NCBI GenBank assembly: GCA_937129365.1
Contig: CAKZNB010000049.1
Span: 133,498-197,497 of the forward strand
Length of the DNA stretch: 64,000 nt
Source: an uncultured Flavobacteriales bacterium
GTDB lineage: Bacteria; Bacteroidota; Bacteroidia; Flavobacteriales_D; CAJJDF01
Direction: 5' to 3'
Within the stretch, counting starts at the first letter, position 1, and each line of letters opens with the position of its first letter. The notes under the pieces are model-generated. The model was not told where the DNA came from. It did no database searches and was given only the letters and a program-made list of their open reading frames with translations. Positions 26,519 to 64,000 of the stretch are shown one piece after another. The position numbers and the translations under genes were made by a program.

Positions 26519-26552
26519 TTATAAAAGTTGTTATTCCTGCGAAGGCAGGAAT
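26519..26552. repeat. REP-like hairpin repeat, copy 1 (TTATAAAAGTTGTTATTCCTGCGAAGGCAGGAAT)
   Basis: Perfect 8-bp hairpin ATTCCTGC-GAAG-GCAGGAAT. A near-identical copy lies at 26847..26880. Confidence 0.8.
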
Positions 26553-26846: not shown

Positions 26847-26880
26847 TTATAAAAGTTGTCATTCCTGCGAAGGCAGAAAT
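26847..26880. repeat. REP-like hairpin repeat, copy 2 (TTATAAAAGTTGTCATTCCTGCGAAGGCAGAAAT)
   Basis: Direct repeat of 26519..26552 with 2 mismatches. Lies 20 nt past the stop of the minus-strand thioesterase gene. Confidence 0.8.
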
Positions 26881-27317: not shown

Positions 27318-28003
27318 AGTAAATTATAATGTGTGCAAGCAACAATAGCAGCAGTTTCGGTTCTCAATCTGGTTTCGCCCAAAGATAATTCATTAAATCC
27401 AGCTTGTTTTGCCAAGTCTATTTCTTTGGGAGTGAAATCTCCTTCGGGACCAATTAAAATAAGAGTAGATTTAGTTGAGGGTAGAGCATAAGAAAGTAAA
27501 TTTTTTTTCTCTCCATTTTCTTCGCAATGTGCAATGTATTTATTTGTAGAATTATCTTTTAGTAATTCTTTAAAAGTAATTATAGGATTCAACACAGGTA
27601 AATGAAAACTCTTGGATTGTTTCCCGGCAGAAACAATAATTTTCTCCATTCTTTCAGCTTTCAGTACTTTCCGCTCAGAGCGTTCGCAGAGGATAGGAGT
27701 AACTTGAGAAATGCCAATTTCGGTAGCTTTTTCTAGAAAAAACTCCATGCGGTTGTTGTTTTTGGTAGGAGCAATGGCAATGTGCAAATGGTTGTGTTGA
27801 AGAAAACTCTGTTTACTTTTTATAGCAACATGGCTTTTTTTTGAGCCAATTTGAGTGAGTTCACATTCAAATAAATCGCCAGTTCCATTCATTATCCATA
27901 TAGAATCACCTACTTGCTTTCTCAGTACTCTTGTGACATGAGTATGTTCTTCTTTTTCAAGAAAAAGTTCTGTTTCTATTTTGGGATTGTAGAATAATTG
28001 CAT
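27314..28003 (-). CDS. rsmE: 16S rRNA (uracil1498-N3)-methyltransferase RsmE
   Basis: 229 aa. MQLFY start, PUA-like N-domain, SPOUT C-domain with LIGPEGDF. Confidence 0.9.
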   Translation of the reverse strand: MQLFYNPKIETELFLEKEEHTHVTRVLRKQVGDSIWIMNGTGDLFECELTQIGSKKSHVAIKSKQSFLQHNHLHIAIAPTKNNNRMEFFLEKATEIGISQVTPILCERSERKVLKAERMEKIIVSAGKQSKSFHLPVLNPIITFKELLKDNSTNKYIAHCEENGEKKNLLSYALPSTKSTLILIGPEGDFTPKEIDLAKQAGFNELSLGETRLRTETAAIVACTHYNLL

Positions 28004-28004
28004 G

Positions 28005-28128
28005 GTAACGCAAAGATGGGGATTTTTTCATTAGTCGTTCACCTGTAGCCATTAAAACTCAGTCTTTTTTTTAAATTTATCTTGATATTATTGGTCCCAA
28101 AGTCTTTGAATAAGCGTCTGTTTTAGTG
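28005..28128. repeat. Degenerate attC-like palindrome (element Z) between the GNAT stop and the rsmE start
   Basis: On the + strand GTAACG-CAAAGA-TGGGGA (28005-28022) pairs imperfectly with TCCCA..TCTTTG..GTT (28095-28122). TTAGTG at 28123-28128 is complementary to CACTAA at 28664-28669. Much weaker than elements A and B. Confidence 0.3.
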
Positions 28129-28659
28129 ATGCTTATTTTTTATTATAAGTTTTTTGTCACACCAATACCAGACTACATCTTCACCTCCAGGTTCATAAGG
28201 CGCAAATTTATCAAATTCCATCCCAACTTTTTCCATAACTTTTATAGATGCTTTATTTTCCTTCATAGCAATTGCTATTATCTGTCTTAATTCGAGTTTA
28301 TCAAATCCATATGTTAAAATTGCTTGAGATGCTTCTGTTGCAAAACCCATCCCCCAATATTGAGGGGAGAATCTATAACCAAGATCAATTTCATCAAATT
28401 CAGGTAGATACGCTAAACCAGCCCAGCCAACAAAATGCATTCCATTTTTTAGAAAGGTAGCCCATCTTCCGTATCCATAATTCTCATAGTCGTTAATTCT
28501 TGTTTTTATTGCCTGTTCCATTTCTTCTAAAGATTCAACCAGAGGTTCTCCTGTGTACTTTTGTACATCAGAATTAGAATGCAACTTAAAAAGTTCCTCT
28601 TTATCATCTAAGGTGATTTTCCTTAATAATAATCTCTTTGTTTCTATCAAAATTTTCAT
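28123..28659 (-). CDS. GNAT-family N-acetyltransferase (RimJ/RimL-like, Acetyltransf_3-type)
   Basis: 178 aa. ETKRLLLRKITLDD start and QYWGMGFATEA acetyl-CoA region. Confidence 0.85.
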   Translation of the reverse strand: MKILIETKRLLLRKITLDDKEELFKLHSNSDVQKYTGEPLVESLEEMEQAIKTRINDYENYGYGRWATFLKNGMHFVGWAGLAYLPEFDEIDLGYRFSPQYWGMGFATEASQAILTYGFDKLELRQIIAIAMKENKASIKVMEKVGMEFDKFAPYEPGGEDVVWYWCDKKLIIKNKHH

Positions 28660-28665
28660 TTTTCA

Positions 28666-28857
28666 CTAACGGTTGGTATAAGAAACGTAGGGCAGGGTAA
28701 AAGTACTATCGTTTCGGTTTATTACTTAGCTAAATATAAATATTTTGCTTTTATCTTATCGATTTTAAATGCCAAATTTTATATTTGGCGGACTTTGTAA
28801 ATAAACACAGACCTTTAGGCAAGCCAAGAATGCCCTATGTTTTTTATACATTGTTAG
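28666..28857. repeat. attC-like structured palindrome, element A (192 bp)
   Basis: + strand CTAAC(28666-70)...GTTAG(28853-57). Long imperfect stem of 5 bp, a 5x3-nt internal loop, 6 bp, G-T, 4 bp, G-T, 7 bp. Conserved core hairpin GCCAAAT-N5-ATTTGGC followed by GGAC. Confidence 0.6.
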
Positions 28858-29934
28858 CTAAAGTACTTTTTTCGTTAATATTGTATATAATCTATGGTTG
28901 ATGTAATAATTTCCTGTTCCTAATTTCTGTTTTATTAGGATTCCATCTTTCGATAATCTATTCAAATAGTTTCCTGCTGTTATTCTTGATACTCCTAAAT
29001 CTCTTTCTATAAATTCAATTTTAGTGTATGGATGTTGAAATAAATTATTCAATAAATCTTGACTATAAAATTTATAATTATCTCTAATTAAGTGTTTGTA
29101 CTCAAGCATTAGAACTTGAATTTCTTTAATTAATATAATTGTTTGTTTAGCAGTTTGTTCAACTGCTTTGATGATATAAATTAACCAATTTTCCCAATTA
29201 TCTGTAATTCTAACTTCTTGTAATAATTCGTAGTATTTCACCTTATTTTGAATAATGTATCGACTCAGGTAAAGTATTGGTAAGTCTAGTAAATCTTTCA
29301 TTACAAGGTATAGTACATTAATTATTCTTCCTGTTCTTCCGTTTCCGTCATAAAATGGATGAATACTCTCAAATTGAAAGTGAATAATAGCCATTTTAAC
29401 AATTGGGTCAAAATCAGATAAATCATCATCATTGATGAATGTTTCAAGATTAGACATTAAGTTCTTAATAGTGTCATAGTCTTGAGGAGGAGTGTATACA
29501 ACTTCTCCCGTTGTTGCATTTTTTAAAGCAGTACCTGGAACTTTTCTAAATCCAGCATTGTTTTTTTCAAGCTCAGATTGAATTTGAATTATATCGTTGT
29601 TTGTTAATATATTTCTCTTGGAGATTAATGAGTAGCCAGTTTTTAATGCTGATATATAATTTTGAACCTCTTTAGCATCCAATGACTTCAATCCATCTAA
29701 GTTTAATTCAGCTTTGTAAAGATCATCGTGAGTTGTAATGATGTTTTCAATTTCAGAACTATCTTTAGCTTCCTGAAGTCCTAAAGTATTGATTAGTATA
29801 CTCTCGTTAGGAATACTTGAAACTAAACCTTTTAATTCGGCTAGTGCTCTGTGAGCTTCGTTAAGCTTTTTTAAAACACGTTTTGTTTCAATATCTTTTG
29901 TAAGAGGTAATTTTTCAAGCTTGAAATTATTCAT
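28858..29934 (-). CDS. Fic-family protein (AMPylase-type, N-terminal inhibitory helix, C-terminal winged helix)
   Basis: 358 aa. Catalytic HPFYDGNGRTGR, N-terminal SSEIEN matching the (S/T)xxxE(G/N) auto-inhibition motif, C-terminal GVSRITAGNYLNRLSKDGIL wHTH. Confidence 0.92.
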   Translation of the reverse strand: MNNFKLEKLPLTKDIETKRVLKKLNEAHRALAELKGLVSSIPNESILINTLGLQEAKDSSEIENIITTHDDLYKAELNLDGLKSLDAKEVQNYISALKTGYSLISKRNILTNNDIIQIQSELEKNNAGFRKVPGTALKNATTGEVVYTPPQDYDTIKNLMSNLETFINDDDLSDFDPIVKMAIIHFQFESIHPFYDGNGRTGRIINVLYLVMKDLLDLPILYLSRYIIQNKVKYYELLQEVRITDNWENWLIYIIKAVEQTAKQTIILIKEIQVLMLEYKHLIRDNYKFYSQDLLNNLFQHPYTKIEFIERDLGVSRITAGNYLNRLSKDGILIKQKLGTGNYYINHRLYTILTKKVL

Positions 29935-29936
29935 AA

Positions 29937-30056
29937 TGATAAGAAAATCTATTTTTCTTTACAAAGATAGTTCTTTTGATAAGAAATATTAATTTTCTTT
30001 ACATATAAAATATATGTGATAAGATTTTAAGTTAATCTTTACATTCAATTTTTCTA
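29937..30056. repeat. Three exactly phased 40-bp direct repeats (iteron/operator-like) abutting the Fic start codon
   Basis: Units are 29937-76, 29977-30016 and 30017-56. Each is TGAT-AAGAxx-N7-xxTCTT-TACA on the + strand. The inner 6-N7-6 inverted repeat is kept by paired changes in unit 3 (AAGATT/AATCTT versus AAGAAA/TTTCTT). Confidence 0.8.
29962..29969 (-). promoter_or_regulatory. Candidate -7 box TATCTTTG (TAnnTTTG) for the Fic gene, inside repeat unit 1
   Basis: Exact consensus match on the minus strand about 28 nt upstream of the Fic ATG. Confidence 0.35.
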
Positions 30057-30075
30057 GGGTGCTTCCGTATTTTAG

Positions 30076-30272
30076 CTAACGTCTCGGCTATGATTAGTAC
30101 GGGAATTAAAAGTAGTGAACTTTCGATTAAGCACTTAGCCAAAACTTTTTATTTTGTTTTAATTTTTTCATTTTAAAAGCCAAATCAAAAGATTTGGCGG
30201 ACATTATAAAAACACACTAAACTTTGGATTAAACACTAAAACCCGTATTAATTATAGCCATTGTTGTGTGTA
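30076..30272. repeat. attC-like structured palindrome, element B (~195 bp)
   Basis: + strand CTAAC(30076-80)...GTTGTGTGTA(30263-72). Same stem architecture as element A but with different stem sequences. Same core hairpin GCCAAATC-N4-GATTTGGC followed by GGAC. Confidence 0.6.
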
Positions 30273-30276
30273 GTAC

Positions 30277-31695
30277 TTAGTCTTTACCTTTAATTATTCT
30301 AACATCATCTTGATAGTTATATCTAATAGCACCTTTTTCCAGTTTCATACCTTGGTTTCCAGTTATATCATCTGTAATTGGCCCAACATTATGCAACATA
30401 AAATCGAGATGATTGTATCTTTCGTTTGCAACAAGATTTGAGAAATTTATTTCATCAGAATAAAATCTTTGATTAGAACTTGTCTTTATCTCAATAACAC
30501 CAAAGGTATCTAAACTTGTGTTTTTGAATTCATAATCGTGTTCCCAAAAATAAGTTCCACCTTTTTCCATATGAAGTTTTCCACCTGATTTGCCATCCTT
30601 TCTTTTTGGAAAGCAGATAAATTTTGTTCCTACTTTCTGAGTTTGATTTGGTTTAATACACAAAGGGAATTCTGTATCTGCGTAAAGACTTTCTATCGGA
30701 AAGAAAAATACTAATTGCTTTGAAGTTAGTACTTCTATACTTTCTATATAAACATTCTGCTTACCATCATTAATAATGCTGATTTCGATTATAGGTTCAG
30801 TTATTTTTTGTTTTTTTCTATTCAGTAGTAAATCAATTTTCTTAGGTTCTTTAAACCAATGAAATTTATTTTTGTGTTCAAAGATTTGATGTCTTAAAAT
30901 AATTTTGTCTTTATTATTTATGGGTATCTTTTCTGAGTTTTCCTCTACATTAATAAAAATCTCCTGTGTTACAGTTAAACCGTTATGGTCTTTGAACTCC
31001 TTAAGATAATTAGAAAAAGGTGGTAATTCTGGACTTAATGTATTCAACATAGCAGACAACAACATCGCAATCTCGAAATTATTTTCTTGTGAAATAGATT
31101 CATAATAAAATGAAGATTTTGCTAATTGTCTTGATTCTTGAAAGGCATAATTACGTTTTGTATGACTCCAGTATCCTTTTCCAATGACAAGTAAGACATC
31201 AATAGCTGGATGAGTATGAAATTCCGAATCATATTTTTTTATACGTTCTATTTCATTCTCTTTTGTCATATCGGATGCATAGGCAAAAAGAACTCTAATC
31301 GGTCTTTTTTGACCTTTGGAATCAAACTTTTTAAGAAGGTTAAATTTCTTAATAGTACTTTTTATTTCCGTTGCGTTTATTGTTGATTTTACTTCAAAAG
31401 CGTAGCGACAACTTTCAATGGGAAAAACTCCAACATTTGAGCTTAACATAGCTTTAGGAAGTGAATCCTCGTTATATATAATTAAATCTGTTTCTGCTGA
31501 TAAACTTCCATTGCCATCGGCAATTTTTCCATTTCCTATATTCCATTTGCGAGGAAGGTATTTTAAGAAAAAGTCACTTAGATGTTCTTCTTTAACTTTT
31601 CCTTTAAGCCCATCGTGTTCTATTGAAGAACCTAAATTAGCAGATTCTACTAAAGTATTTATGTTGTTCAATAAGACTTTTAATACAGGTGTCAT
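30277..31695 (-). CDS. Hypothetical protein with N-terminal PD-(D/E)xK nuclease-like domain (DUF6602-like) and unknown C-terminal domain
   Basis: 472 aa. D70 (ETDLIIY) ... E101-V-K103 (AFEVKS) spacing typical of the restriction-endonuclease fold. The C-terminal ~240 aa have no motif I recognise. Confidence 0.6.
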   Translation of the reverse strand: MTPVLKVLLNNINTLVESANLGSSIEHDGLKGKVKEEHLSDFFLKYLPRKWNIGNGKIADGNGSLSAETDLIIYNEDSLPKAMLSSNVGVFPIESCRYAFEVKSTINATEIKSTIKKFNLLKKFDSKGQKRPIRVLFAYASDMTKENEIERIKKYDSEFHTHPAIDVLLVIGKGYWSHTKRNYAFQESRQLAKSSFYYESISQENNFEIAMLLSAMLNTLSPELPPFSNYLKEFKDHNGLTVTQEIFINVEENSEKIPINNKDKIILRHQIFEHKNKFHWFKEPKKIDLLLNRKKQKITEPIIEISIINDGKQNVYIESIEVLTSKQLVFFFPIESLYADTEFPLCIKPNQTQKVGTKFICFPKRKDGKSGGKLHMEKGGTYFWEHDYEFKNTSLDTFGVIEIKTSSNQRFYSDEINFSNLVANERYNHLDFMLHNVGPITDDITGNQGMKLEKGAIRYNYQDDVRIIKGKD

Positions 31696-31887
31696 TATTT
31701 TTGATGTTCGTTTGGTGTATTACACACAACTTGTTTGTATGCGGAAGTTAAGAAAAATACTTTGTAATTAGCTAGTACACATGGTGTAATATATGTTTTT
31801 ATTTATTTTTTAGTACATTTGATAGGTGCTGATTAGCGCACTCAATCGGATGTAAACGTCACCTTTATGAAAATAGAAAATTATTTA

Positions 31888-59824: not shown

Positions 59825-62800
59825 TTGAAAAAAACTATTAAGCATATAATTTTTCTGTTATTTGGAATTCTTTTGTTTTTTAATAACAATAGTTTTTCAA
59901 CCCATTTAATGGGTTCAACACTTTCTTATTCATGTATTGGGCCAAATCAATACACTGTAACTTTTAAAGCTTATAGAGATTGTGGAGGAATAGCAATGCC
60001 GTCTTCATTTTTAATCTCATACAGTGGTTGCGGAAACACTGGTAGTTTAACTGCAACACAAATAAGTAGTGCTGATATTACACCAGTTTGCCCAAGCAAA
60101 TCTAGTAATTGTGGCGGAGGAACTGGACCAATAGGAGTAGAAGAATACATTTTTCAAGGAACAGTAACTGTTCCTGCTGGTTGTTCAAATATTTTATTTT
60201 CTGTTTCATCTTGTTGCCGAAATGGAAGTGTCACAAATATTACAAGTCCAAGTACAAATGGGTTTTACACAAGCTCATTACTTAACAACACTATTAGTCC
60301 TTGCAATAGTTCTCCAATATTTGCCTCAGCACCAACACTTTTTGCCTGTGTTAATCAACCAGTTTCTTTTCAACAATTAGCAACCGACCCTGATGGAGAT
60401 GTTTTGGTATATTCTCTGACCAACTGTAGGCAAACTACAGGAACTAGTGTAACTTATGGGGGCGGTTTTAGTGGAGCCTCTCCATTAACAACTCCTGTAA
60501 CTATAAATCCAAGTACAGGAGATTTATCTTTCACACCTAATTCGATTCAAATCGCAACAGTTTGTGTACTTGTAGAAGAATTTAGAGGTGCGGTTAAAAT
60601 AGGAGAAATAGTCCGAGATATGCAGATTGTAGTTCGAAACTGTTTCAACGCTTTACCTTCACTATCTGGAATAAATGGTGCATCTGGTGTCTATAGTACC
60701 AATATTTGTGAAGGAGCGCCACTTTGTTTTAATGTAAATGCTTCAGATACTAATTCTGCAGATAATCTAACAATGACTTTTTCTGGAATTATACCTGGGT
60801 CAACATTTACGCAATCTGGAACTGGTAATAATAAAACAGGAACTTTTTGTTGGACTCCACCAATAGGTTCTGTTGGTTCATATGTGTTTTCTGTTTTAGT
60901 TAATGATGATGCTTGTCCTATCATTGGGCAAAACTCAAAAACTTATACAGTTAATGTAGTTGCAAATTCCAATCCACCTATTGTTGCTAGTTCTGATGTA
61001 ACATTATGCGAAGGTAATTCTACAACACTTACAGCCACAAATGTAGCTCCAACAATAACCTGGTCGCCCTCATTGGGGCTCTCAACAACATCTGGAACTT
61101 CAACAACTGCAACTCCACTTTCAACTACAACTTATACAGCAACTGCAATTTATGCCGATGGTTGTCGATCCTCGGATGATGTAGTTTTAACTATTAATCA
61201 GGCTCCTACCACATTAATTACTCCCACATCTGCTAATGTCTGCCCAGGAGGTAATTTTACATTAACAGGCACAACAAATAGTACTGGAATGAGTTTCAGC
61301 TGGACTAGGTTAAACCCTTTTGCTATAGGGTTAGGGAGTGGAACAGTTTCTGGAACTTCTTCTACAATAGTTGTAACTGTCCCAACTACTCCTGGCACAT
61401 ATAATTTTAGATTAAGAGTCACAAATCCTATCTCAGGCTGTGTTTCTGAAGTTACCGTTCCACTAACAGTAGGTTCCGCTCCTCCATTAGGTAGTTGTGT
61501 CAATATATATGTTTCTCCTTCAGGATCATCTTCAGCAGCTGGTTCACAAGCAAACCCCACAAATTTGCCTGAAGCTCTTACTAGGAGTGCTTGTCAAAAT
61601 GCAGTTATAAAAATGGCTATGGGAACTTATAATTTCAGTAACCCTATCAATATTCCAAGCTTTGTAACTATTGAAGGAGGATTTAATCCTACTACTTGGG
61701 TAAAAACGAGTCAAGCTGGTGCCACTACAATAAATAGAAATACATTAAACCCTGAAGGAGTAACTAACGCTCGGAGGCTAGTTATGTTTTATGGGAATAG
61801 TGTTTCTGGATTTAGATTTCAAGACATTACAATAACTACCTCTGCTGCAAATCAAAGTGGCATGTCCACTTACGGAGTGCATTTAACATCTTGCTCTAAT
61901 TATGATTTTGTAAGAACGCAAATATTACCAGGAAATGCTTCTGCTGGTCAAGCAGGAGGAACTGGCCCAACAGGTGGATTTTCTGGTGGTACCGGACAAC
62001 ATGGGTCCAACTTCTCTACTTCTACTTCGGCTCAGGTAAATGGTGGAGCAGGAGGAGCTGGATGTAATAGTTCGGGCTCAGGAGGGAATGTATGTACCGC
62101 TCCAGGAATAAACAGGGGTTGTAATGGTTTTTCAGGGGGAGGGTCAGCCCTTTATTGGCGAGGAAGTGGTGGTGGTGGTGGTGGTGGTGGTGGTAACGAA
62201 GATAGAGATGGAGGAAGAGGAGGTTATGGAGGATCAATTGCTGCTGGAGGTGGGTTTGCAGGTAGGTCTCAAAATAATCAACCAGGTCCTGGACCAGGAT
62301 GTAGAAGTTTTGGAAACTGGTTTGGGAATGAAACCGGATGCATAAGTTCTGTATCATCAACTAGCACTGAATCTGGAAGATGTGGTAGAACTGGTATAAA
62401 TGGACAAAATGGGACTATAGGAGTTCTTGGTAGTGTAGGTACTTATGGAGTATTTTATACACCAGGTGGACAAGGTGGACAAGGAGGAAGAGGTCAAGGT
62501 GGTCAAGGCGGGTCAGGAGGAGGAGGAGGTGCAGGAGCTGATGGGTTTTTATGTGCTGATGGTACAGGTGCAGGAGGAGGAGGAGGAGGAGGAGGAGGCT
62601 GTGGAGGATATGGTGGTCTTGGTGGTCGTGGTGGTGGTGGTAGTTTTGGATTGTATTTAGTTTCTAATGGGACAAACGGGATCGTTTCACAAAGTTATAT
62701 TAATGCAGGAACAGCAGGTGCTGGTGGAAATGGAGGAACTGGTAGAATAGGTACAAATGGAGGCCTTGGAGGGAACGGAGGAAATGGAGGTACAAGTGGA

Positions 62801-64000
62801 GGTTATGGAGGAGATGGAGGAAGAGGAGGAAATGGAGGAAGAGGGGGGAATGGGGGGAATGGAAGAGCTGGTGTTTCAATTGATGTTTATAGGGTAAGTG
62901 GATCTTTATTAACAACTCAGGTTACTACTTTTAATCTTGCTGGTCAATCTACTATCAATGTTTCTAATGTTAATTGTACCCAGACTAATGTAAATTACTC
63001 AACAGCCTCTCCAAATTCATGGGACTTTGATAGGGTTACTAATTTTGCAACACCAGCAACATCTGGAGCAACAACCTCTGCAAATACACAATATTCTCAA
63101 ATAGCTAGGTATACAGTTTCTAGTGGTGCTGATATTTATGAAGGCTTTCATAATATTTCTTTTACTGGTTCGGTTGCTCCAGAAATATCAACAAGTGCAG
63201 ATTCTATAGGTGTTGATACATTTCAACTTTGTCAAGGAGATTATGCAACTTTTGCAAGTGTTTCTTCTGGATTAACTTATATCTGGAATTTTAATGGGGC
63301 AATTGCAAATCCTGGATCTGGAATTCAAGTAGTTCCTTCCACACAATTTAATACTCCAGGATTTTATACCATCACACTAAGAACAACAAACGATTGTTGT
63401 GGGCTTTCTCCTACCAAAACAATTTATCTTTATGTAGATGTATTACCAACTGTATTTGCATCTGGAGCTGGATCTATTTGTGAAGGGGATAATAGAACTT
63501 TAAGTTTATTTGGTTTAACTGCTAGTGATAGTGTTGTTTGGTCTCCCATTACAAGTATTGTTTCTTCAACATCAACATCAACATCAAAAACTATTACGGT
63601 TAGTCCGTCAACAACTACAACCTATACTGCATCTATTTATACAAAAATAACTACAAATGGCGTAACAAGATTAAGTTGCCCTATTAGTCGACCTCTTACA
63701 ATAACAGTGAGTCCTAATCCTATTCTTAGCATGTCATCAACACAAGTTATTTGTAATAATGATGGTACTTCAACAGCAACTATAAGTTCAGGAGGAGGTT
63801 TATATAATTTTGTATGGTCAAATGGAGGCACCACATTTAATACAACTACATCAACCATTACAGGTTTAGGTGTAGGAAAATATGTTGTAACTGCGACAAA
63901 TACTATTACAGGTTGCTCTGTTACAGATTCTGTTGATGTTCTTCCCTCAGCTTTAGCTCCTACTATAGTTCTTCAAAGTTCTACACCTGCAACTTGTGGT
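59825..64000 (+). CDS. Giant cell-surface adhesin-like protein, 3' end beyond window (at least 1392 codons); not in the supplied ORF track
   Basis: Frame 2 is open from the stop at 59816-18 to the window end. TTG start gives signal peptide LKKTIKHIIFLLFGILLFFNNNSFS. N-terminal HLMGSTLSY..YTVTFKAYRDCGG motif typical of Bacteroidota type-B-sorted giants. Ig-like repeats, beta-helix-like YVSPSGS..GTYNF, glycine-rich tract. Confidence 0.85.
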   Translation, partial: MKKTIKHIIFLLFGILLFFNNNSFSTHLMGSTLSYSCIGPNQYTVTFKAYRDCGGIAMPSSFLISYSGCGNTGSLTATQISSADITPVCPSKSSNCGGGTGPIGVEEYIFQGTVTVPAGCSNILFSVSSCCRNGSVTNITSPSTNGFYTSSLLNNTISPCNSSPIFASAPTLFACVNQPVSFQQLATDPDGDVLVYSLTNCRQTTGTSVTYGGGFSGASPLTTPVTINPSTGDLSFTPNSIQIATVCVLVEEFRGAVKIGEIVRDMQIVVRNCFNALPSLSGINGASGVYSTNICEGAPLCFNVNASDTNSADNLTMTFSGIIPGSTFTQSGTGNNKTGTFCWTPPIGSVGSYVFSVLVNDDACPIIGQNSKTYTVNVVANSNPPIVASSDVTLCEGNSTTLTATNVAPTITWSPSLGLSTTSGTSTTATPLSTTTYTATAIYADGCRSSDDVVLTINQAPTTLITPTSANVCPGGNFTLTGTTNSTGMSFSWTRLNPFAIGLGSGTVSGTSSTIVVTVPTTPGTYNFRLRVTNPISGCVSEVTVPLTVGSAPPLGSCVNIYVSPSGSSSAAGSQANPTNLPEALTRSACQNAVIKMAMGTYNFSNPINIPSFVTIEGGFNPTTWVKTSQAGATTINRNTLNPEGVTNARRLVMFYGNSVSGFRFQDITITTSAANQSGMSTYGVHLTSCSNYDFVRTQILPGNASAGQAGGTGPTGGFSGGTGQHGSNFSTSTSAQVNGGAGGAGCNSSGSGGNVCTAPGINRGCNGFSGGGSALYWRGSGGGGGGGGGNEDRDGGRGGYGGSIAAGGGFAGRSQNNQPGPGPGCRSFGNWFGNETGCISSVSSTSTESGRCGRTGINGQNGTIGVLGSVGTYGVFYTPGGQGGQGGRGQGGQGGSGGGGGAGADGFLCADGTGAGGGGGGGGGCGGYGGLGGRGGGGSFGLYLVSNGTNGIVSQSYINAGTAGAGGNGGTGRIGTNGGLGGNGGNGGTSGGYGGDGGRGGNGGRGGNGGNGRAGVSIDVYRVSGSLLTTQVTTFNLAGQSTINVSNVNCTQTNVNYSTASPNSWDFDRVTNFATPATSGATTSANTQYSQIARYTVSSGADIYEGFHNISFTGSVAPEISTSADSIGVDTFQLCQGDYATFASVSSGLTYIWNFNGAIANPGSGIQVVPSTQFNTPGFYTITLRTTNDCCGLSPTKTIYLYVDVLPTVFASGAGSICEGDNRTLSLFGLTASDSVVWSPITSIVSSTSTSTSKTITVSPSTTTTYTASIYTKITTNGVTRLSCPISRPLTITVSPNPILSMSSTQVICNNDGTSTATISSGGGLYNFVWSNGGTTFNTTTSTITGLGVGKYVVTATNTITGCSVTDSVDVLPSALAPTIVLQSSTPATCG
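62168..62191 (+). repeat. In-frame trinucleotide microsatellite (GGT)8 encoding Gly8
   Basis: Read directly; in frame with the 59825 ORF. Confidence 0.95.
62573..62596 (+). repeat. In-frame trinucleotide microsatellite (GGA)8 (plus GGC) encoding Gly9
   Basis: Read directly; in frame with the 59825 ORF. Confidence 0.95.

Follow-up and report, generated by a model that had tools for sequence, protein, structure and literature searches.

A probable bottom-strand recombination site in a gene-cassette array of an uncultured Flavobacteriales bacterium, and its integron-like family in marine Flavobacteriaceae

Why does the gap between two co-oriented genes of an uncultured Flavobacteriales bacterium hold a long imperfect palindrome that folds best on the strand antisense to both of them? 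The palindrome, here called element A, lies in a stretch of 64,000 nucleotides (assembly GCA_937129365.1, contig CAKZNB010000049.1, a metagenome contig of 381 kb, positions 133,498 to 197,497; hereafter the window), where it occupies the space between the minus-strand genes of a GNAT acetyltransferase and a Fic/DOC family protein (Table 1). Its plus strand is antisense to the genes, that is, the 'bottom' strand in integron terms. An initial annotation of the sequence had likened this strand to a folded integron attC site, with an R box, an unpaired spacer and an L-type stem, while allowing for an antisense RNA. We conclude that element A is probably the attC-like, bottom-strand recombination site of a mobile gene cassette, standing in a small satellite array that is devoid of a recombinase. 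It belongs to a large, integron-like and apparently undescribed family of marine Flavobacteriaceae, paired with a Xer-like recombinase that does not have the integron-specific domain.

On re-reading, the helix, the loops, the hairpin and the GGAC motif first annotated at 28666-28857 proved correct to the base. From the outside in, CTAAC pairs with GTTAG; the loop GGTTG faces ATT; GTATAA pairs with TTATAC; then follow one G-T, AAAC with GTTT, a second G-T, and TAGGGCA with TGCCCTA. The G-T positions were said to be such on the plus strand only, which we confirm. We folded both strands as DNA and as RNA, and the plus strand is the more stable in each case. As DNA it reaches -24.7 kcal/mol (z -3.4; one of 200 shuffles is equally good), against -19.6 kcal/mol (z -2.0) for the minus strand; as RNA it reaches -55.3 kcal/mol (z -5.6; none of 200 shuffles), against -41.0 kcal/mol (z -3.4). 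The strand preference that had been read from the wobbles is thus borne out, the opposite strand folding worse in both chemistries.

The window contains a second copy, element B. Each of the two directly follows a minus-strand gene, Fic for element A and a DUF6602 gene for element B. They have in common the ends AACG ... CATTGTT and the central hairpin, and measure 188 nt (A) and 187 nt (B) from AAC to GTT. The stem of element B, GGCTATGATTAGTACGGG with CCCGTATTAATTATAGCC, differs from that of element A and carries its G-T wobbles at the same two positions. A profile search for a third copy in the window, relaxed and unfiltered, found only A and B.

How far does this fold extend beyond the window? 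We scanned genomes, one per species, for the central-hairpin pattern, and at least 120 stretches of DNA matched. Nearly all come from Flavobacteriaceae, with a few from other Bacteroidota and a few unrelated chance matches; the genera among the matches listed include Maribacter, Winogradskyella, Aquimarina, Tenacibaculum, Polaribacter, Psychroflexus, Nonlabens and Dokdonia. We then ran a profile of 90 copies on these stretches and on the window. It gave at least 220 matches, at least 177 of them near full length, in at least 107 sources (106 loci and the window), element A scoring 111.9 bits (nhmmer). Copies within one locus are always co-oriented, spaced by 0.45-4 kb, with up to six per 8 kb. 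The sites of this long type measure about 187-200 nt, and the median of the family is 196 nt including 4-nt flanks. The central hairpin is conserved as GCCAAAT-N5-ATTTGGC plus GGAC; the central region of ~135 nt is missing from shorter variant sites.

These variants form a second type of cassette site, ~110-125 nt in length, seen at 1560-1670 of locus L057, 4960-5075 of L066 and 3270-3392 of L072 (gene-sense coordinates). Their layout is TAAC-ACC-GTATATAAT ... GAAAGTCC-TCGC-GGACTTTC ... CCATATACAAAC-ACGTT, and the long-type profile misses them.

An alignment of 142 distinct copies (A3) gives a consensus in which the central hairpin accompanies a main stem of 16 bp. AAC and GTT show little or no variation, and in almost all copies a purine (G or A) follows GTT. 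Pairing holds in 95.9% of the cells, versus 38-45% when the partners are slid by 1-3 columns, and the covariation score is 0.438, versus 0.03-0.07 for the slid partners. None of 500 shuffles reaches the observed values on four of five structure measures; on the fifth, the number of pairs changed on both sides, five of 500 do. Eleven of the 16 main-stem pairs have changed on both sides, several positions using all four Watson-Crick types, and the pairs of the central hairpin covary as well (A3 columns 128-132 with 144-148). The internal loop of 5-6 nt versus 3 nt recurs in A, in B and in the family alignment.

The G-T wobbles of element A are conserved across the family: A3 has G-U at columns 20-205 in 138 of the 142 copies and at columns 26-200 in 139. 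Over the 16 stem pairs together we count 346 G-U cells versus 14 A-C, and still 69 versus 14 when the two fixed wobbles are left out. The gene-antisense strand is the more stable one in 149 of 160 copies with RNA parameters and in 137 of 160 with DNA parameters. Since the G-T positions are near-invariant throughout the family, the asymmetry is a designed one rather than a product of drift.

Could such copies simply be a dispersed repeat? Terminal inverted repeats of ~19-29 nt around ~135 nt recall a miniature inverted-repeat transposable element (MITE) or a repetitive extragenic palindromic (REP)-like repeat that has spread between genes and perhaps also acts as a terminator or insulator. The elements also occur in many copies per genome, often breaking assemblies into short contigs, and the gene-sense strand has a short T run after the central hairpin. 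However, neither target-site duplications at the element ends nor an associated transposase are seen, and the stems differ between copies and covary instead of being near-identical, as simple propagation of a repeat would have left them. The copies are strictly co-oriented with the genes, and their flanks are exchanged cassette-wise. The promoter and terminator scan, whose counts come near those of shuffles, does not call the central hairpin a terminator. A MITE or REP-like origin is thus highly improbable, and we rejected it for the missing target-site duplication, the uniform orientation within loci and the covarying stems.

What the copies punctuate instead are arrays of genes, with one site after each open reading frame (ORF) or ORF pair. 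When loci are oriented by their genes, the ORFs between neighbouring sites number 124 sense and 9 antisense. Typically, an ORF ends within ~30 nt before a site and the next one starts 10-30 nt after it. The cargo is diverse: across 150 cassette ORFs there are hits to 100 different Pfam families, with GNAT, Fic, GmrSD, Schlafen-AlbA, HNH, a cytosine methylase and a beta-lactamase among them. In locus L085 (5604-6906, gene-sense) we observed two tandem, near-identical ORFs of 115 aa with no detectable sites between them, 94-96% identical to a cassette of L056 (3285-3955).

The boundaries of these units follow a rule. In 36 of the 62 neighbouring pairs of sites, the 4 nt flanking one site beyond its GTT are exactly reverse-complementary to the 4 nt flanking the next site beyond its AAC; random pairs match at 4.6%, and the two ends of one and the same site in 4 of 161 cases. 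Complementarity continues over 11-12 nt, except that position 8 systematically has G facing T when read on the gene-antisense strand, a further fixed wobble. Both cassettes of the window show end complementarity at 11 of 11 positions apart from this wobble: AGCTAAAGTAC is complementary to GTATTTTAGCT in the Fic cassette, with G28863 opposite T30071, and GTGTGTAGTAC pairs with GTATTACACAC in the DUF6602 cassette. In integrons, the opening bases of each cassette pair with the inverse core in the site that belongs to the same cassette, and not with the core of a neighbouring site. Hall, Stokes and colleagues reportedly used this complementarity of cassette ends to locate the integron crossover in GTT. 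The pattern of flank exchange seen here would likewise place the crossover at the AAC/GTT triplet.

Have the cassettes moved? In the closest relatives that we found, whose rsmE is 65-70% identical, the gene order is trmD, dodecin, p174, rsmE, thioesterase and brxC. The stop codon of p174 lies 1 nt from the start of rsmE in two of three relatives, and a 380-nt gap separates them in the third (L125). The window array sits between the two housekeeping genes p174 and rsmE, and neither GNAT, Fic and DUF6602 nor the sites are present in the three closest relatives; the whole block is therefore an insertion. Elsewhere in the family, cassettes that are ~95% identical occur in different genera and contexts (L059 with L072, L057 with L066), and the homology begins 2-3 nt before one GTT and stops just past the next. 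A copy 89% identical to element B was found on a 640-kb megaplasmid of Flammeovirga kamogawensis, of the class Cytophagia (L137 9009-9200; NZ_CP076130.1 628400-628602), close to partial copies in the same orientation. This suggests cassette transfer between classes.

Which enzyme might act on these sites? We scanned 135 ORFs upstream of arrays for Pfam families, and the commonest were Phage_integrase and Phage_int_SAM_4, with 8 members. These make up a single recombinase family of ~375 aa; in each of the nine loci that carry it, the gene lies upstream of the first site and is co-oriented with the cassettes. Directly downstream of its stop codon come a variable hairpin and then an attI-like site, CCAATTG/TT (the slash marks the junction). 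In six of the nine loci, the 5-7 nt after this motif (8-10 nt including GTT) exactly complement the bases before the first site of the array.

The recombinase passes the NCBIfam model NF040815 'XerA / integron integrase' (243 bits, cut-off 220) and remains below the integron-integrase model TIGR02249 (196 bits versus 265), with its match split in two. When aligned with VchIntIA/IntI4 (2a3v), it has 26 residues (280-305) where the integrase has 69 (180-248), and thus lacks the IntI-specific insertion. Its best matches among solved structures are of XerA type (4a8e, 5hxy) and align without a break. Residues 1-105 have no Pfam match. Homologues are 67-82% identical across genera and bear the NCBI name 'site-specific tyrosine recombinase/integron integrase'.

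Two further features were noticed around this gene. A conserved, divergent ORF of 120-133 aa lies just upstream of it on the opposite strand (gene-sense coordinates: L042 4262-4624, L047 1406-1807, L083 1239-1619, L113 1280-1669); it contains the motif CxxC..GRxDKK[FY]C..CKS, matches no Pfam family, and may be an accessory factor of the platform. The hairpin after the recombinase stop in L005, L042, L047, L056, L076 and L089 has a conserved base, GGATA...TATCC, which is followed by AATTGTT. Its upper stem covaries between genera, and the hairpin may act as a terminator or belong to the site.

Does recombination, then, take place at ordinary double-stranded sites, the long hairpin being incidental or serving another role? 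The modules would in that case be of Xer/dif type, like Acinetobacter pdif, or the work of a housekeeping Xer at a dif-like site. The recombinase is indeed XerA/XerC-like without an IntI domain and highly conserved across genera. The attI-like site adjoins its gene, as dif adjoins xerS in streptococci, and inverted 14-bp sequences bracket each gene. However, the outer arm is cassette-specific and varies freely with its complementarity kept, and individual positions of the covarying main stem use as many as four pair types. Both helices thus vary freely while pairing is retained, which speaks for recognition of shape rather than of a conserved duplex sequence, and is our main argument against a duplex mechanism. 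Moreover, fixed G-T wobbles and an asymmetric loop of 5-6 versus 3 nt would be senseless in duplex DNA, and no conserved inverted arms surround the crossover in duplex form. We therefore regard recombination at duplex sites as unlikely and retain a folded, attC-like site.

The window array itself can be delimited by the complementarity of its cassette ends. In the gene-sense strand, cassette 1 begins with G/TTGTGT (31729) and leads through DUF6602 to element B; cassette 2 begins with G/TTAGCT and leads through Fic to element A, and is followed by TTAGTGAAAAATG, the start of GNAT. The upstream boundary of cassette 1 reads ACAAACAAG/TTGTGTGTAATAC in gene sense, 29 nt before the DUF6602 ATG, and resembles the attI junction of locus L083. 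Of the junction region upstream of it (31731-31887), only the last ~15 nt are similar to short-type sites. Immediately upstream of the Fic start and inside the Fic cassette, two tandem 40-nt repeats (TGATAAGAAA..TTTTCTTTACA; 29937-30016) may form an operator or promoter carried by the cassette.

Table 1. Features of the cassette array in the 64,000-nt window; positions are counted from its first nucleotide.
Feature	Position	Strand	Remark
Element A core, putative attC-like site of the Fic cassette	28668-28855	+	From invariant AAC (28668-28670) to invariant GTT (28853-28855)
Element A main (L-type) stem, left arm GTATAAGAAACGTAGGGCA	28676-28694	+	G28682 and G28687 take part in the two conserved G-T wobbles
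Element A main stem, right arm TGCCCTATGTTTTTTATAC	28831-28849	+	
Central hairpin GCCAAAT-TTTAT-ATTTGGC, then GGAC	28771-28793	+	Within the central region of ~135 nt
Element B core (AAC to GTT), putative attC-like site of the DUF6602 cassette	30079-30265	+	156 bits in profile search
Fic/DOC family gene, 358 aa, cargo of cassette 2	28858-29934	-	
DUF6602 gene, 472 aa, cargo of cassette 1	30277-31695	-	
GNAT acetyltransferase gene	28123-28659	-	ATG 8 nt from the AAC of element A; inside the inserted block
AGCTAAAGTAC, outer-helix half of the Fic cassette	28856-28866	+	Contains the Fic stop codon (28858-28860)
GTATTTTAGCT, gene-sense 5' end of the Fic cassette	30068-30078	+	Partner of 28856-28866
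GTGTGTAGTAC, outer-helix half of the DUF6602 cassette	30266-30276	+	Complementary to 31717-31727, with G-T at position 8
GTATTACACAC plus AAC, 5' boundary of cassette 1 (upstream array junction)	31717-31730	+	
Possible decayed or short site between GNAT and rsmE (GGTAACGC ... GTTTTAGTG)	28004-28122	+	Low confidence
Whole inserted block	28004-31887	.	Missing from the closest relatives found

A structured RNA has to be weighed on the same evidence. A non-coding or antisense RNA transcribed from the plus strand could regulate the flanking minus-strand genes, its G-U pairs and covariation being those of an RNA structure. The plus strand folds very well with RNA parameters, as given above, the G-U pairs are conserved and the covariation is strong; sequence alone does not tell an RNA from a single-stranded DNA structure. 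Such an RNA leaves unexplained why cassette ends are complementary around AAC/GTT, why an attI junction stands beside a recombinase, why homology between genera comes in cassette-sized blocks, and why the window carries an insertion relative to its relatives. Furthermore, neither the window nor 18 array loci give an Rfam match at gathering threshold, searches with elements A and B at E up to 10 return nothing relevant, and a consensus scan gives no notable plus-strand promoter at element A. Altogether, we consider an RNA quite unlikely.

A weak similarity to the Rfam family Flavo-1 (RF01705) was seen at 30158-30195, over the central hairpin, on the minus strand of element B only; it scores 13.5 bits versus the 42 needed, and the 18 array loci give no Flavo-1 match at threshold.

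Several observations weigh against a recombination site. The G-T wobbles fit an RNA structure equally well. No convincing folded site follows GNAT: the candidate region (28000-28135) folds no better than its shuffles (z -0.2 for the plus strand, +0.95 for the minus strand) and does not align with short-type sites, so that the status of GNAT as a cassette is uncertain. There is no recombinase within the 64-kb window either, and the window array is therefore a satellite array, comparable to the recombinase-less clusters termed 'CALIN' in integrons. As for the boundaries, 26 of the 62 neighbouring pairs are not fully complementary; many of these are probably explained by short-type sites that the profile misses. 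The recombinase family is without the insertion that known integrons need for attC recombination, hence a different mode of recognition has to be assumed, and its strong conservation (67-82% identity across genera) could reflect another, housekeeping role. Finally, the mobility of the cassettes is deduced from sequence comparison.

On balance, the attC-like interpretation of the initial annotation stands as far as a recombination site is concerned. It draws support from a second copy with a different and complementary stem, from covarying copies in co-oriented arrays, from the AAC/GTT-centred complementarity of cassette ends, from an attI-like junction adjoining a tyrosine recombinase, and from the empty site in relatives. 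Element A is not a canonical attC site, as set out below.

How would such a site work? We propose that the gene-antisense strand, which is the plus strand in the window, would fold as single-stranded DNA. The two ends of the cassette itself, 11 nt plus AAC/GTT, would then form an outer helix of 14 bp, and an asymmetric internal loop, with 5-6 nt on one side and 3 nt on the other, would separate it from a stem of 16-19 bp. Together, the two helices may mimic the two arms and the central region of a Xer-type core site, with strand exchange occurring within the AAC/GTT triplet. Because each fixed G-T wobble is an A-C mismatch in the opposite strand, these positions would mark the strand to be used and tell the enzyme which one to take, a role that extrahelical bases fill in classical attC sites. 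We infer that the substrate is single-stranded, that cleavage falls at this triplet and that the Xer-like recombinase is the catalyst.

The likeness to integron attC sites is extensive. In both, the arrays are co-oriented and made up mostly of single ORFs with an imperfect palindrome behind each one; sequence conservation is limited to the AAC ... GTT ends, the stem being kept in structure and not in sequence; and an unpaired spacer lies between R-type and L-type helices. In both, the start of a cassette is complementary to its own inverse core, which locates the crossover in GTT. As in integrons, the gene-antisense strand folds better, a tyrosine recombinase has an adjoining attI, recombinase-less arrays (CALIN) exist, and the cargo comprises accessory and defence genes. 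The ends of the attC core consensus, RYYYAAC ... GTTRRRY, are present, and the full 7-mer is followed only loosely (CACTAAC and GTTAGCT in element A).

There are also differences. Unlike attC, the sites have no conserved extrahelical bases, A3 showing no bulges in its stem columns, and their asymmetry is due to the fixed G-T wobbles, together with the one at position 8 in the outer helix. They are about 187-200 nt long, or ~210 nt with the outer helix, whereas attC sites measure 57-141 nt. The outer (R) helix has 14 bp instead of 7, and the central region is conserved across genera. Unlike IntI, the recombinase has no IntI-specific insertion of ~43 residues and carries an extra N-terminal stretch of ~105 aa. 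Its gene is co-oriented with the cassettes, with attI right after its stop codon, in contrast to the divergent layout usual in integrons. Because of the missing extrahelical bases, the length and the missing IntI domain, we do not file element A as a member of the canonical attC family.

Other Xer-related systems each share a part of the picture. At attP(+) of CTX-phi, XerCD, which has no IntI domain, takes as substrate a folded single-stranded DNA hairpin mimicking a duplex core site, and integrates it at the chromosomal duplex site dif (an integrative mobile element exploiting Xer, IMEX). The combination of a Xer-type recombinase without an IntI domain and a folded single-stranded hairpin site would thus be common to both systems; unlike CTX-phi, the present one stacks single-gene cassettes in arrays rather than phage genomes, and has its target beside the recombinase gene. 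In Acinetobacter, pdif modules are small groups of genes that shuffle between replicons and have a conserved 28-bp duplex XerC/XerD site at either end. The resemblance lies in the small size of the gene modules and in the inverted Xer-type sites that bound them; unlike in pdif, a long hairpin here joins arms that vary and covary, and each cassette has a single site. Archaeal XerA and archaeal integrons come close in protein, given the XerA-type structure matches and the NF040815 model passed. Unlike archaeal XerA, ours is a bacterial protein with an added N-terminal region.

What kind of system do the arrays then represent? To our knowledge, integrons count as an essentially proteobacterial system, in which attC recombination is considered to require the IntI-specific domain. 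With some reserve, we favour the idea of a second kind of integron, widespread in marine Flavobacteriaceae and some other Bacteroidota. It would combine a XerA-like recombinase, in which the IntI domain was never acquired or was lost, with folded single-stranded DNA sites of ~200 nt whose G-T wobbles set the reactive strand, and satellite arrays like that of the window would have been seeded from it at other chromosomal locations and on megaplasmids. For Bacteroidetes, IntegronFinder 2.0 reported a single complete integron, that of Salinibacter ruber M1, where an earlier study by the same authors had only In0 (PMC9024848). We found no description of the present arrays in the literature searched, the coverage of which is incomplete, so that this is no proof of novelty.

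The rest of the window is described for completeness. The genes around the array are rsmE, thioesterase, brxC, recR, clpB, trmD and rplS. Two 34-nt direct repeats, 94% identical and each with a hairpin ATTCCTGC-GAAG-GCAGGAAT, lie at 26519-26552 and 26847-26880; they flank ~330 bp between the brxC and thioesterase genes, and may belong to another small repeat family. Near the end of the window, a long series of GGN-rich repeats with a 9-nt period occupies 61900-62900; its translation would be a glycine-rich repeat. No tRNA or tmRNA was found in the window, and a search of the phage collection gave no match.

If this picture is true, dominant marine heterotrophs have a large gene-cassette system of their own that is invisible to current tools, and with it a new reservoir of accessory, defence and resistance cassettes. 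The system would be a natural experiment on how a simple Xer-type enzyme handles folded single-stranded DNA, and would encode the choice of strand in a different way, through G-T wobbles. It would also account for the breaking of Flavobacteriaceae assemblies at these repeats.

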